Assembly (NCBI GenBank): GCA_038245785.1 | Contig: JBBRSB010000036.1 | Coordinates: forward strand, 1 to 45,728 | DNA length: 45,728 nucleotides | Reading direction: 5' to 3' | From: Gloeobacterales cyanobacterium | GTDB taxonomy: Bacteria > Cyanobacteriota > Cyanobacteriia > Gloeobacterales > PMM-0068 | Part shown: positions 13,291-18,249 of the stretch, in pieces | Layout: each line of letters begins with the position of its first letter | Position numbering within the stretch: position 1 is the stretch's first letter | The notes under the pieces: model-generated | Database searches by the model: none | Told to the model about the DNA's origin: nothing | The model's input: only the letters and a program-made list of their open reading frames with translations | Position numbers and translations under genes: made by a program

Positions 13291-13327
13291 CTTTGACTTT
13301 ATCGAACGTATAGCATTGTGAGTGCCC

Positions 13328-14173
13328 ATGAACCAAGCGAGTGTCCCAGAGCGACATCCTATCAGCACCCAAAGAATTCTGGCCTATGGCTGTGAACTGT
13401 TAGGCATGGCCTTGATTATCTTCAATGCGCTCGCTTGGGCCTGTTGGAATTTCGGAGCTGGCTCTCCGGTTGTTCAGTCAGTTCCTGACCGCAGTGTGCG
13501 ATTGGTCTTGCAAGCTATTTGTATTGCAACGGGATCTGCGATCGTTGTCTACTCACCCTTCGGTAAACGAGCTGGCGGACATCTCAATCCAGCCGTGACA
13601 TTGGGCTTTTGGCTCTTGAATAAAATCTCAATCCGAGATGCCTTTATTTATATCCTGATGCAGTTTTTAGGTGCATTTGTGGGCTCGCAGCTGGTGTGGC
13701 TAAGTTTTCCTGTCTTAGCGCACAGTATTCGTGGGGGTGCCACGGCCTTGGATCAGGGCATCAGTCCAGCACTCGGCTTTGGACTAGAGTTGAGCATGAC
13801 CTTTCTGTTGATGTTTATTATTCTGGTTACAGTTAATTCGGCCTGGATGCGCTGGACAGGCGTGATTGCTTCAACGGTCTTTGCTTTGCTATACGCTAAT
13901 GCTGCTAGGTTTACAGGAGCTAGTTTGAATCCGGCGCGGTCCTTGGCCCCTGCAGTCCTCGCTATGTTCTGGCAAAACCAGTGGATTTATTGGATTGCTC
14001 CCCCCTTGGGGGCGGCTCTGGCGGTACTTCTCTATCGCCAGGGAATTATCGGTACGGGCAAGTCATACTGCTGCAAGCTCTACCATACCTCCGATATTCC
14101 CTGCCATCACACTCGTTGCGGTTACCGTGACCCCGCGAATATTGATGATTTTTCTCGAACGAGAAGCCCGTAA
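13328..14173 (+). CDS. MIP/aquaporin family channel with Cys/His-rich C-terminal tail
   Basis: GGHLNPAVT and ASLNPARS (two NPA boxes), six hydrophobic helices; tail YCCKLYH..PCHHTRCGY. Confidence 0.9.
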   Translation: MNQASVPERHPISTQRILAYGCELLGMALIIFNALAWACWNFGAGSPVVQSVPDRSVRLVLQAICIATGSAIVVYSPFGKRAGGHLNPAVTLGFWLLNKISIRDAFIYILMQFLGAFVGSQLVWLSFPVLAHSIRGGATALDQGISPALGFGLELSMTFLLMFIILVTVNSAWMRWTGVIASTVFALLYANAARFTGASLNPARSLAPAVLAMFWQNQWIYWIAPPLGAALAVLLYRQGIIGTGKSYCCKLYHTSDIPCHHTRCGYRDPANIDDFSRTRSP

Positions 14174-14530
14174 ATGGAAGATCTGTTTAAACTATGGACA
14201 GCTTATTTGGCCTTGGGCGTAGAAGCTAGTGCTGGGATAATTATTGGGCTGGCAGCTATTGAAGCAACGTATAAGGCCTTGTTGCTGTTTTTTTCACGGC
14301 GAGGTGCTCCTGAAGATTTGCCAGAGAACGTGAAGGAAGATATTCGATTGCAATTTGGCCGCTGGCTGTCGCTAGGACTCGAATTTGAATTGGGTGCAGA
14401 TATTTTACGCACAGCCATCTCACCCACCTGGAATGAGATTGGACAGTTGGCGGCGATTGTTGTCTTGCGGACCGCCCTAAATTTCTTCTTGCAACTGGAA
14501 ATCGACAAAGCTGCCAAGAGAAAGCTCTAA
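14174..14530 (+). CDS. DUF1622 membrane protein
   Basis: IRLQFGRWLSLGLEFELGADILRTAISPTWNEIGQLAAIVVLRTALNFFL; starts immediately after the aquaporin stop. Confidence 0.9.
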   Translation: MEDLFKLWTAYLALGVEASAGIIIGLAAIEATYKALLLFFSRRGAPEDLPENVKEDIRLQFGRWLSLGLEFELGADILRTAISPTWNEIGQLAAIVVLRTALNFFLQLEIDKAAKRKL

Positions 14531-14595
14531 ACTGCATAAGCTGGCAAGTAAATCCTCCAGTAAATAGATTGGGCTATCCTAGTATTAAAGAAATT

Positions 14596-14668
14596 CCCGG
14601 TGTGGTGGAGTCTGTCAGGCTGGCGGATCACTAAAATCGCCCAGCCTACCGGGGCCACTTAACGGGAG
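14596..14668 (+). ncRNA. Candidate riboswitch (nhaA-II-like cation sensor) in the antiporter leader
   Basis: P1 CCCGGT(14596)/ACCGGG(14648); inner stem AGGCTGG(14617)/CCAGCCT(14641); pseudoknot GTGGT(14602)/GCCAC(14654) next to SD GGGAG(14664); TAGTAT at 14580. Confidence 0.6.
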
Positions 14669-14674
14669 TGAACT

Positions 14675-15922
14675 ATGTTTTTTCCGCTTATCGCTGCAGG
14701 TTCAGTGGGCGAACTTCCCCCTGGCCTTCTCACCCTTGGGCAGCTTTTGTCCAGTCTTCTTATCATCTATGTGGCCAGCAAAATGGGTGGGGAACTCGCC
14801 CTGCGCCTCAAACAACCTGCCGTTCTGGGCGAACTGCTGGCGGGGGTAGCCGTCGGCGTCTCTGGCTTGCATCTCATTGACCCAACGCAGCCCGTGCTCC
14901 TCCTGTTGGCCCAGGTCGGGGTTACCCTGTTGCTCTTTGAAATTGGCTTGGAGTCGGACCTCCGTTCCTTGCTCAAACTTGGTCCGCAGGCACTAGCAGT
15001 TGCCTTGGTGGGAATGGCTTTGCCCTTCGCCCTGGGCTACGGTGTCATGAAATTTACAGGAGCCTCAGAGCTTTTGGCCGTCTTCGTCGGGGCCACCGCG
15101 ACAGCCACGAGCATCGGCATCAGTGCGAAGGTCCTTTCAGAGCTGGGATACCTCCAACGACCTGAAGGCCAGATCATCTTAGGAGCAGCGGTAATCGATG
15201 ACATCCTGGGGGTAGTTATCCTTTCGGTGGTGGCCGGTATTGCCAAGGGCGGCAGTCTGGAGTGGGGCGAAGTAGCACGGATTGTCTTTTCCTCACTTGG
15301 GTTTTTAGTTGGTGCTATCGTAGTTGGCAACTGGTTTATGCCCTACTTTTTGAAGGTTGTAGAATGGCTACGCACCCGTGGTGACTTACTCACGGCCTCG
15401 CTAATCTTTGCCTTTGCCCTTGCTTGGATAGCAGAACAGGTAGGCTCTGCCGCAATTATTGGTGCTTTTGCTGCCGGACTGGTTCTAGCTGAGACAGATA
15501 AACGTCATGACTTGGAGCACCAGCTGCGTCCCGTCACTGATTTCTTCCTGCCAGTCTTCTTCATTACCGTTGGCGCTGGCGTCAATTTAGCGCTCCTGGC
15601 TAACCAGCAGGCTCTGTTCTTAGCACTTGCCCTTAGTGCAACAGCCGTGCTGGGAAAACTAGTCTGTGGTTGGGCTGCTTTTAGAACTCCAGTCAATAAA
15701 TGGGTGATTGGAGCAGGAATGATCCCACGTGGGGAGGTTGGTCTGGTTTTTGCCAGTGTCGGGCTGTCTACAGGAGTCCTTACCGGGATTAACCACAGCG
15801 CTGTGGTAATCATGGTCATACTTACCACCTTCTTGGGTCCGCTGCTGTTGAGTCTGATGCTTCGCAGTAAGTCTGTGAGTGAGCCAATGGTTGAAGAGAC
15901 AACTGTAAAGTCCGTTGATTAG
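14675..15922 (+). CDS. CPA2 family Na+/H+ antiporter (NhaS3/NapA-like)
   Basis: QPAVLGELLAG, LFEIGLESD, ATSIGI, AAVIDDILG, GMIPRGEVG; about 12 TM segments. Confidence 0.92.
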   Translation: MFFPLIAAGSVGELPPGLLTLGQLLSSLLIIYVASKMGGELALRLKQPAVLGELLAGVAVGVSGLHLIDPTQPVLLLLAQVGVTLLLFEIGLESDLRSLLKLGPQALAVALVGMALPFALGYGVMKFTGASELLAVFVGATATATSIGISAKVLSELGYLQRPEGQIILGAAVIDDILGVVILSVVAGIAKGGSLEWGEVARIVFSSLGFLVGAIVVGNWFMPYFLKVVEWLRTRGDLLTASLIFAFALAWIAEQVGSAAIIGAFAAGLVLAETDKRHDLEHQLRPVTDFFLPVFFITVGAGVNLALLANQQALFLALALSATAVLGKLVCGWAAFRTPVNKWVIGAGMIPRGEVGLVFASVGLSTGVLTGINHSAVVIMVILTTFLGPLLLSLMLRSKSVSEPMVEETTVKSVD

Positions 15923-16630
15923 CTAAAATGCGCTGGCGATAATTACAAGTGGCTGTAGGGGGAAATAGAAGGGAGAAAGCGCACCTCTGAAAATTCGCAA
16001 TCCAAGAGCAGATAAATTCAGCATGAAACTACGGAACAGGGTATTGACGCCGGATGTGCTTTTCCTCATACCTTTGTTCTCCAAGCAAAATTCTTGGTTG
16101 TGGCAACCCCGCTCAAAATTGAAGAGCTCTGTATCAGCCATGATTGACCCAAGGTGATGGGCAAAGTTTTCCAACTCTTCCATATCGCGTTCAGTGAACT
16201 GGTGGGATTGGAACGTGCCGAAGTGCAGAACCCCGATTATGTCTTGATTGACGAGCAATGGGATGCCGACGAGTGATCGCAGACCTTTCTGGCGCAAAAC
16301 TGGGCTAAAGACCTCCGCTCCTGAGAGATCGTTGACTATCATCGGCTTCCTACTTGCGGCAATACTACCAGCTATACCCTGCCCAATGGGAATACGAATC
16401 TGTTGTACAATCTCCTCCTCTAGACCGATGGTGGCGTATACTGCTAAATTTTGTCGATTCTCAGCAGGCAACAGAAGGGTGACAGTGTCTAAGGATTTGT
16501 ATTCTCGTAGCCACAAGAGCAAATTTTGCAAGTAAGGGTCAAACTCGCTTTTCTTGATGTTCTGCTCCCCACTTAAAAGCACATACCAACCTTTATAGGT
16601 TCGTAAACCCAAGCAATTTCTCCAAAACAT
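15923..16630 (-). CDS. Stand-alone GAF domain protein
   Basis: IRIPIGQGIAGSIAASRKPMIVNDL..LRSLVGIPLL..IIGVLHFG..HQFTERD; start uncertain (ATG 16630 or TTG 16651). Confidence 0.8.
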   Translation of the reverse strand: MFWRNCLGLRTYKGWYVLLSGEQNIKKSEFDPYLQNLLLWLREYKSLDTVTLLLPAENRQNLAVYATIGLEEEIVQQIRIPIGQGIAGSIAASRKPMIVNDLSGAEVFSPVLRQKGLRSLVGIPLLVNQDIIGVLHFGTFQSHQFTERDMEELENFAHHLGSIMADTELFNFERGCHNQEFCLENKGMRKSTSGVNTLFRSFMLNLSALGLRIFRGALSPFYFPLQPLVIIASAF

Positions 16631-16984
16631 TTGGTAATCTCTCCAATGCAAGGTTTTACTCCTTTATTCATCCTGAGATTTAAAGAAGATCGAGGACTGG
16701 CGATCCGGATCCGATCGTGCCAATTGGAAGTACTTTACCACACCTCGAAATTGACTTTTCACTGTTTCCATTGTTCGGGTGTCGTCTCAGACACCACTTC
16801 TAGAGCATCCTTCAGAGGCATTCGTCCATCGTCGTCTGGGTTAGTTAAGTTCTTCTCCAAAATTCGCGCATCTATTGGACCTTATTAAAGGGGCCGGTCA
16901 CGCCTAGTTTGTGCAGTTATTGAGAAATTGAGAACACACTCATACTTTTGTGCTCCCAATTTTTAATCAGGAGCTATACATCTA

Positions 16985-16999
16985 CTCAGCAAAAACTCA
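16985..16999 (+). promoter_or_regulatory. CTCA-N7-CTCA direct repeat upstream of the HK/RR operon
   Basis: CTCA at 16985 and 16996. Confidence 0.45.
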
Positions 17000-17139
17000 T
17001 TTTTCTCACAAGTACTCCTACTAGAGTAAACGAGAGAGTATTTAATCAACTTGGAAGAGAGGCTACAACCATCTACGGTTGTAGGTTGTTGAGGTGTTCA
17101 GTGAATTCTGTGGTGAATCGACTAAAAGCTGCAGTCAAG

Positions 17140-18249
17140 ATGATGCCAGAAAGAATTAGTCTTTCTTCTCTTCAATCTCGGCTCATCTTTGGAAACACCA
17201 CTATTTTTATTCTTGGGCTAGGGAGTCTTGTTCTATGGCTGGACTGGGAAACAAGACCGTTATTCATGGCTACACAGCAACAGGAAATTGTTCTTGATTC
17301 CGCTAAGTTGTTGGCTATTCTGCAAAGTTTGAAGCTGGTGAGCCTCTTGTCGCTAACGACGGTAACACTTATCAGTATCCTATTTATCCAATATGTACTG
17401 TTTCCCCTGTACCAGGTGATTCAACAAATGCAGAACCCTATCCATGCTTTGAGTGCGAACCCAATCAATCGTGCTCCTTGTGAGGTTAGACAACTAATCG
17501 AGCGGTGGAACCATCAGTTGGTATACGTCTCTGAAATCAAAGAGCAGCAGAAACAGTTTATCGGTGGTGCAGCCCATGAGTTGCGCACTCCTATGAGCCT
17601 GGTTTATGGTTACTTGCAGCGAGCTAGTCGACGAAATCAGAACTTGACTGATGATCAGCAAGAAGCGCTAGAAATGGCTGCTGCTGAAGCTAAACGCATG
17701 ACACAAGTTCTGCAAGAATTACTGATTCTTGCACGGGCTGACCGAGGAAACATGCCCCTCCATCCAGAATCTCTGAAACTCAATGATCTGTTGCTAGAAA
17801 TAGCGAGCATGGCTGAAAAGTTTGAACAGCGCACTATCCGGATAGAAGCAGACGCAACGCTGATTACGGTTAAGGCTGACCGTAGACACTTAGTGCAGGT
17901 CTTGAACAGACTGCTTGATAATGCAGTCAGATATTCACCTGCTGATAAACCTATTACGCTGAGACTCAAATGCACGGATGATAAGGCCATTATTCAGGTT
18001 TGCGATAGCGGAGGCGCTGACTTATCCGTTGGGGGACAGGGAATTCCAGGTGCGCAACAAGCACGAATTTTTGAACCCTTTTATCGGGTTGATCCTTCCC
18101 GAACTCGCTCAACGGGAGGCGTTGGTTTGGGACTATCTATTGTTAGGGCTCTGGTGGAAAACATGGGTGGATCGGTTACAGTCCAGTCAAAGCCTGATCA
18201 AGGCAGTACCTTTACGCTGACCTTGCCTGCTCTAGGAGATGCATCATGA
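17140..18249 (+). CDS. Membrane sensor histidine kinase (HisKA + HATPase_c)
   Basis: Two TM segments; AAHELRTP H-box, LLDNAVRYS N-box, IFEPFYRVD, GVGLGLSI; likely ATG at 17140. Confidence 0.9.
   Translation: MMPERISLSSLQSRLIFGNTTIFILGLGSLVLWLDWETRPLFMATQQQEIVLDSAKLLAILQSLKLVSLLSLTTVTLISILFIQYVLFPLYQVIQQMQNPIHALSANPINRAPCEVRQLIERWNHQLVYVSEIKEQQKQFIGGAAHELRTPMSLVYGYLQRASRRNQNLTDDQQEALEMAAAEAKRMTQVLQELLILARADRGNMPLHPESLKLNDLLLEIASMAEKFEQRTIRIEADATLITVKADRRHLVQVLNRLLDNAVRYSPADKPITLRLKCTDDKAIIQVCDSGGADLSVGGQGIPGAQQARIFEPFYRVDPSRTRSTGGVGLGLSIVRALVENMGGSVTVQSKPDQGSTFTLTLPALGDAS

Follow-up and report, generated by a model that had tools for sequence, protein, structure and literature searches.

A conserved leader RNA ahead of cyanobacterial cation/proton antiporter genes, a candidate for a new riboswitch class

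According to the reports on the Na+ and Li+ classes, only a small number of RNAs that sense monovalent cations have been described, and these classes come from other phyla (PMC9646797, PMC9337991). The Na+-I class, or DUF1646 motif, is a leader of about 55–65 nt that stands ahead of genes for monovalent-cation transporters, including one named kefB (66 kefB construct). Of its two stems, P1 has conserved bases at its bottom and P2 has them in its loop; the class usually acts through a transcription terminator and was proposed or demonstrated to be an ON switch, the bound ligand preventing a competing helix from forming (PMC9337991). The same text reports the class from Firmicutes, Proteobacteria, Acidobacteria and Verrucomicrobia, and not from cyanobacteria. 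The Li+-I and Li+-II classes (nhaA-I and nhaA-II) are ON switches for an ion exporter and lie ahead of NhaA genes (pfam06965); the main text describing them does not contain the word ‘cyanobacteria’ (PMC9646797).

The window analysed here is a stretch of 45,728 nt from a Gloeobacterales cyanobacterium (GenBank assembly GCA_038245785.1, contig JBBRSB010000036.1). Gloeobacterales are the deepest-branching cyanobacteria. The leader under study occupies the 144-nt gap between a DUF1622 gene (14174–14530, + strand) and a PF00999 gene (14675–15922, + strand), and its surroundings contain the following features.

14675–15922, + strand: the presumably regulated gene, a 415-aa CPA2-type cation/proton antiporter (PF00999 Na_H_Exchanger, E 7.7e-65)
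14664–14668, + strand: Shine–Dalgarno (SD) sequence GGGAG, 6 nt 5′ of the ATG at 14675, read from the sequence
14580–14585, + strand: −10-like hexamer TAGTAT, a possible promoter of the leader's own, 9 nt 5′ of P1, by match to the consensus alone

The antiporter is nearest to CPA2 proteins in NCBIfam (TIGR00932), with 189 bits, under the cut-off of 238. The stem-loop of the leader ends immediately 5′ of the SD sequence and is present as a single copy in its own genome, which rules out a repeat or mobile element there. Further upstream, beyond DUF1622, lies a MIP aquaporin gene (13322–14173) whose stop abuts the DUF1622 start (14173/14174); the MIP, DUF1622 and CPA2 antiporter genes follow one another head to tail on the + strand over 13322–15922. 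On the 3′ side of the antiporter there are a GAF-domain gene (15923–16651, − strand) and then a histidine kinase gene (16948–18249, + strand). The genes upstream of the motif in a related genome (L010) differ from those in the window.

Relation to described ion-responsive leaders

The initial annotation of this locus noted a resemblance to nhaA-II, and this part of it has to be withdrawn. The leader has no match to nhaA-II (RF03038, at least 70.4 bits required), which has none at E ≤ 1 genome-wide either, and no match to nhaA-I (RF03057, at least 37 bits required); the Sodium model (RF03071, at least 40.5 bits required) likewise leaves the leader unmatched and gives only sub-threshold scores of 20.7 and 18.2 bits elsewhere in the genome. 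The gene, moreover, is of the PF00999 CPA2 type and not NhaA. The cmscan check proposed at the time, run with Rfam 15 at gathering scores over the whole window, returned no matches, and at E ≤ 10 the sole match within 14480–14720 (241 nt) was a chance one to mir-490 on the minus strand. Membership in nhaA-I, nhaA-II or Sodium is rejected because of these negative covariance-model tests. Kinship with nhaA-II (Li+-II), nhaA-I (Li+-I) or DUF1646 (Na+-I), as a cyanobacterial member or as a variant, would fit the shared genomic theme of a structured RNA ahead of a cation/proton antiporter, and the published classes are ON switches serving ion exporters (PMC9646797, PMC9337991), but three things leave it barely credible: the lack of any Rfam match even at E ≤ 10, the variable P2 loop, which like the base of P1 carries conserved bases in the Na+-I and Li+-I models, and the PF00999 gene.

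The element has some features in common with these systems. Like Na+-I (RF03071), it is a short leader RNA ahead of monovalent-cation transporter genes, from which it differs in the placement of its conserved bases (these occupy the 5′ bulge that separates P1 from P2, and the P2 loop varies) and in its expression platform, which would involve the SD sequence or the start codon; no terminator-like site occurs on the + strand of the leader. Like Li+-I (RF03057) and Li+-II (RF03038), it appears to be a cis-regulatory leader of Na+(Li+)/H+ antiporter genes, differing from them in the absence of a covariance-model match and in the gene, PF00999 here and NhaA there. Translational riboswitches in which alternative pairing of P1 frees or hides the SD sequence include the adenine add, SAM-II and preQ1 riboswitches. 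Our element resembles these in its compact putative aptamer beside the ribosome-binding site and in a closing-helix strand with two possible partners; it is unrelated in sequence and architecture and matches no Rfam family.

A motif ahead of cyanobacterial PF00999 antiporters goes unmentioned in the available text of PMC9646797, PMC9337991, PMC5737381 (Weinberg 2017), PMC8632094 (Brewer 2021), PMC11109978 (Narunsky 2024) and PMC12873609. The last of these, a 2026 survey of 202 cyanobacterial genomes, includes only 2 Gloeobacterales and 2 Chroococcidiopsidales genomes, and its supplement might list such a motif (PMC12873609). Full-text literature searches for a riboswitch together with Gloeobacter and an antiporter, or for a Gloeobacter riboswitch candidate, gave nothing relevant, and a search for a K+ riboswitch found none.

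Architecture and covariation of the conserved element

The RNA of 14592–14672 folds at −37.5 kcal/mol against a mean of −26.6 for dinucleotide shuffles (z = −3.79), none of 200 of which reaches this energy; the broader 160-nt stretch is unremarkable (z = −1.12 only). The nested stems described in the initial annotation are present at the coordinates it gave. The minimum-energy fold is a single long hairpin composed, from the inside outwards, of AGGCUGG/CCAGCCU, UCUG/CGGG, GGUGG/CCACU and AUUCCCG/CGGGAGU. Its outer stem occludes the SD sequence: 14593–14599 pairs with 14663–14669, with the SD sequence inside, instead of P1 being formed. Comparison with other genomes reveals more than was visible to a reader of the window alone, pointing to a conserved helix P1, a 16-nt bulge that hardly varies and a hairpin P2 with covariation.

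14595–14600, + strand: 5′ strand of P1, UCCCGG, pyrimidine-rich, pairing with 14649–14654; together with 14593–14594 it doubles as an anti-SD sequence
14601–14616, + strand: 16-nt bulge UGUGGUGGAGUCUGUC, conserved and presumed to be the core that binds a ligand or factor (from conservation, n = 23)
14611–14614, + strand: UCUG within the bulge, 5′ strand of an alternative helix whose partner is 14650–14653 (CGGG) and which excludes P1
14617–14647, + strand: hairpin P2, variable in length and sequence, with conserved closing A-U and G-C pairs (from its basal pairs and folding)
14648, + strand: conserved A joining P2 and P1 (A in 23 of 23)
14649–14654, + strand: 3′ strand of P1, CCGGGG, common to P1 and the alternative helix (from pairing over 23 sequences)
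14654–14658, + strand: GCCAC, the partner of GTGGT (14602–14606) in the pseudoknot of the initial annotation, complementary to it in the window and in L010

The alignment (A3) comprises 23 distinct members from Gloeobacterales, Chroococcidiopsidaceae and metagenomes, left after removal of duplicates (L055 = L016, L057 = L019, L058 = L087 = L014, L060 = L010, L064 = L089 = L018, L077 = L059, L078 = L066 and L097 = L096). The members share a core of a 6–7-bp P1, a G-rich bulge of 15–16 nt, a variable P2 and one conserved A, with motif lengths of, for example, 69, 63, 61, 56 and 54 nt. The bulge has the consensus UGYGGUGGAGYCUGUC, of which 13 of 16 positions never vary among the 23 members; the remaining three are column 13 (A once, in L109), column 14 (U or C) and column 22 (C once, in L019). 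Fifteen of the 23 members came from protein or covariance-model searches that made no requirement of the bulge sequence. The first bulge nucleotide, U14601, is able to pair with A14648, a combination that is U-A in 23 of 23, and RNAalifold adds the corresponding U12-A84 pair.

Pairing in P1 and P2 extends to 96.6% of the alignment cells, compared with 21–66% when the 3′ partners are slid by 1–3 columns, and both sides have changed at 5 of 11 pairs (n = 23), an outcome that answers the covariation check suggested with the initial annotation. The 6 bp of P1 are 97.8% paired over the 23 sequences, with double changes at columns 7–89 (UA 13, CG 8, UG 2) and 10–86 (AU 11, GC 10), and RNAalifold predicts this helix independently. 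The five basal pairs of P2 are 94.8% paired, three of them with double changes (n = 23); the P2 segment forms a hairpin in 22 of 23 members, its stem sequences being unrelated from lineage to lineage. Frequent G-U pairs in the helices place the RNA on the + strand. Since the members are related, fewer independent events underlie the covariation than the counts suggest, and only about 2–3 independent double changes in P1 can be named, one of them being L016 within its order. A conserved structured domain with covariation is a general criterion for riboswitches, and the aligned sequences indicate such a domain here.

The GTGGT/GCCAC pairing fares differently. GCCAC does end 5 nt before the SD sequence and is complementary to GTGGT in the window, as had been claimed, but a conserved pseudoknot is not what the alignment shows: 58.7% of cells are paired (n = 23), and the central two pairs are broken in 16 and 18 of the 23 members, respectively. 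In the minimum-energy hairpin of the window this pairing is nested, and it is a pseudoknot only relative to P1. The more general proposal of a riboswitch-like leader directly 5′ of a cyanobacterial cation/proton antiporter stands, the element being conserved, structured, covarying and found in several gene contexts.

These observations bear on the notion that the element has no function as RNA and is a chance GC-rich hairpin, the remnant of a mobile element or an upstream reading frame for a conserved peptide. The window does contain a 19-codon frame running from GTG at 14602 to TAA at 14659–14661, and several Chroococcidiopsidaceae copies exist, some of them degenerate or next to fragmentary ORFs, but the single copy in the window's genome and the covariation of the helices render this notion very improbable. 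A leader peptide, in particular, is at odds with conservation of all bulge positions, third codon positions included, and is rejected because differences in P2 length that are not multiples of three break the frame or end it early (TGA in L012). A two-tier G-quadruplex in the bulge, considered by eye, was also discarded, as the four GG runs are not conserved and column 10 is A in half of the members. Pairing of the bulge with the 3′ end of 16S rRNA was likewise set aside, no continuous complementarity between them being known.

Competing helices and possible control of translation

What could such a leader do? Part of the bulge has a second partner. The alternative helix between UCUG (columns 22–25) and YGGR (columns 86–89) is paired in 92 of 92 cells (n = 23) and is present in the minimum-energy fold of the window; because it uses the 3′ strand of P1, it and P1 are mutually exclusive. 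Its pairs change to C22-G89 in L019 and to U24-A87 in L107, where P1 has a C·A mismatch. This regularity should be read with the composition of the strands in mind: the 5′ side is almost invariant, and C/U and G/A transitions on the 3′ side pair automatically with G and U, respectively. We put the chance of a 4-bp match somewhere in the bulge at about one in five, by estimate rather than computation.

The two helices are close in predicted stability: enforcing P1 or the alternative helix gives ensemble energies at most 3.5 kcal/mol apart in 17 of 23 members. The effect on the SD region in the same models is modest, with P1 making it more open in 11 of 23 members and less so in 3 of 23. The 5′ strand of P1 pairs with the SD sequence in the minimum-energy folds of the window, L010, L016, L019 and L085; in the Chroococcidiopsidaceae type, the 5′ strand together with GGUGG pairs with AUGGA and CCYACC around the start codon. 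Comparisons with shuffled sequences show these pairings to stand out in few members: only in L009 and L085 (2 of 23) does the 5′ strand pair with the ribosome-binding region better than shuffled strands do (at most 10 of 200 as good), and pairing of the bulge with that region reaches p ≤ 0.05 in 1 of 23 only. When the bulge is kept single-stranded in the model, SD accessibility gains more than 0.15 in 7 of 23 members only.

A two-state translational switch is the reading we favour, because the mutually exclusive helices are nearly isoenergetic in most members and the SD region is more open with P1 in 11 of 23. In state A, the 3′ strand of P1 would pair with the pyrimidine-rich 5′ strand, leaving the bulge free to fold round a ligand. 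In state B, the same 3′ strand would pair with UCUG of the bulge and set the 5′ strand free. In the Gloeobacterales type the freed strand could then pair with the SD sequence; in the Chroococcidiopsidaceae type it could pair with the start codon and the flanks of that codon. A ligand stabilizing state A would turn translation of the exporter ON, both the binding of a ligand and the direction of the switch being inferred; our guess at the most plausible ligand is a monovalent cation or else another signal of ionic or osmotic stress. In the Gloeobacter-type leaders (L012–L014), a small hairpin can mask the SD sequence even in the P1 state, so that the direction of switching may vary by lineage or be OFF.

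The same energetics would suit a switch without a ligand, in which temperature, pH or bulk ionic strength shifts the balance between the two folds and no specific pocket exists. The small energy difference between the states (at most 3.5 kcal/mol in 17 of 23) and the occlusion of the SD sequence or start codon in an extended hairpin agree with such a physical sensor, and the function of antiporters is linked to pH and salt. RNA thermometers and similar sensors, however, usually conserve structure rather than sequence, and in this element all 23 members, from lineages whose antiporters are only 21% identical, agree at 13 bulge positions. The identity of the bulge across lineages therefore argues for a specific tertiary contact, and we regard a purely physical sensor as distinctly unlikely. 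Returning to the ligand-dependent switch, we lean towards the view that this cis-regulatory 5′ leader represents a new candidate class of riboswitches controlling the initiation of antiporter translation; at the least, it is a new regulatory leader for cation/proton antiporters.

Distribution and associated genes

A protein search found relatives of the antiporter in 12 of 14 genomes of the window's order. Nine of the ten close orthologues in this order (at least 72% protein identity) bear CCRGUGYGGUGGAGYCUGUCAG, a hairpin and then CUACYGGG, the upstream element having the pattern YCCRG-UGYGGUGGAGYCUGUC-AG..hairpin..CU-A-CYGGR. The region 5′ of the motif cannot be aligned even within a genus (L009 and L010). 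One close orthologue, 80% identical (L015, genome G007), has no motif; a different, G/C-rich leader containing a possible GCCCGCCCC...GGGGCC hairpin precedes it, and the original leader may have been replaced. Paralogous antiporter genes in the same genomes (L011, L020–L023) also lack the motif.

An exact scan for the pattern over one genome per species gave 12 matches, of which 7 were real (5 in records of Gloeobacterales, 1 in a record of Chroococcidiopsidaceae and 1 in an uncultured bacterium) and 5 were due to chance or coding sequence. Metagenomes gave 29 matches, 11 real and 18 chance or coding; these calls were made by eye, from the lack of the CCRGUGY flank and not with the covariance model. 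The covariance model (R1), made from 11 sequences, found the element in 6 of the 151 genomes sampled from the class, each of the 6 belonging to the window's order, and in 0 of 142 outside that order; in the two non-Gloeobacterales genomes known to carry it, R1 found 3 and 2 copies. In the family of these two genomes it was found in 4 of 28 genomes, and in a sample of their order in 2 of 151. As far as these searches show, the element is confined to Gloeobacterales and some Chroococcidiopsidaceae.

Searching 401 genomes of the phylum with the 15-mer at one mismatch yielded mostly chance matches, and this route was abandoned; among 30 of these loci the covariance model found only partial matches, lacking P1 and reaching at most 21.9 bits. 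The scan also gave exact 15-mers in G391, G319 and G149. The pattern also occurs inside an apparently conserved coding region, GGTGGAGCCTGTCAG..ACTACCGGGG, in L062, L063, L082, L084, L094, L095, L098 and L101, which come from unrelated bacteria (one genome record of Dehalococcoidia and one of Bacteroidales) and from metagenome contigs. Lacking the P1 flank, they do not count as members.

The genes that follow the motif are diverse. It stands ahead of two kinds of PF00999 proteins, the CPA2 type of the window and a K+/H+ (CPA1-like) antiporter in L059, which share 21% identity (E 0.016); in L059 and L073, the downstream PF00999 protein is nearest to K+/H+ antiporters and CPA1. Other downstream genes encode membrane proteins, such as DUF2254 (L088) and DUF1003 (L109). 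In L104, the motif is followed by a short ORF and then an MscS channel gene; in L107, by an 87-aa ORF and then a Ser/Thr kinase gene; in L105, an APC permease gene lies about 430 nt 3′ of the motif. The theme common to the downstream genes is membrane ion and osmotic homeostasis, and placement ahead of functionally related but non-orthologous genes, another general criterion for riboswitches, is what the annotated sequences indicate. The L108 locus, from a Chroococcidiopsidaceae genome (G691, of the same family as G520), encodes a CPA2 antiporter 76% identical to that of the window, exceeding the 72–74% of some orthologues inside the window's own order. This high identity and the retention of the leader suggest that leader and gene were transferred together between the two lineages.

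Occurrence of 2–3 copies ahead of different genes in some Chroococcidiopsidaceae genomes could equally reflect a small regulon of ion and membrane genes, with the bulged hairpin serving as the site of a trans-acting RNA-binding protein or small RNA. The element is small and, like many protein operators, concentrates its information in a single-stranded stretch of 16 nt with a helix on either side. Against this, the motif has no linked gene that is a candidate for a regulator, the upstream genes differ by genome, and a self-contained switch would need just such mutually exclusive helices with the 3′ strand of P1 in common; we therefore judge a trans-acting factor unlikely. The self-contained switch remains the preferred reading. 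In its most specific form it would be an ion-sensing riboswitch with a fold unrelated to Na+-I, Li+-I and Li+-II, native to Gloeobacterales and shared with Chroococcidiopsidaceae, in which a monovalent cation (K+ or Na+) turns ON translation of a CPA-type exporter, a version that we advance only as a tentative possibility.

A motif this compact (about 60 nt), with a core that hardly varies and a place ahead of two distant antiporter families, would, if this interpretation is correct, be a directly testable candidate for a new RNA sensing ions or ionic stress. It would also offer a handle on the control of ion and pH homeostasis in the thylakoid-less Gloeobacterales and the desert-type Chroococcidiopsidaceae, assign a common physiological signal to DUF2254 and DUF1003 membrane proteins, and provide a small natural ON switch usable as a cyanobacterial tool.

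Two further features of the loci concern their flanks. A −10-like TANNNT hexamer ends 3–22 nt 5′ of P1 in 21 of 23 members, compared with 9.0 ± 2.2 (maximum 15) when the upstream 60-mers are shuffled (500 shuffles), and this placement fits a predicted transcript start just 5′ of P1. On the 3′ side, short or interrupted ORFs starting with MD(D/Y)LLATN follow the motif in L066, L074, L080, L096, L097 and L104–L107, loci of Chroococcidiopsidaceae-type genomes and metagenomes with several copies per genome and a conserved SD and start region. Several of these ORFs run into a recurring unannotated LPFG..LLFLIPICFILVKA segment with no Pfam match. Their starts resemble the N-terminus of the CPA1-like antiporter of L059, and the ORFs look like duplicated or decayed 5′ ends of antiporter genes, or like a family of small membrane proteins.
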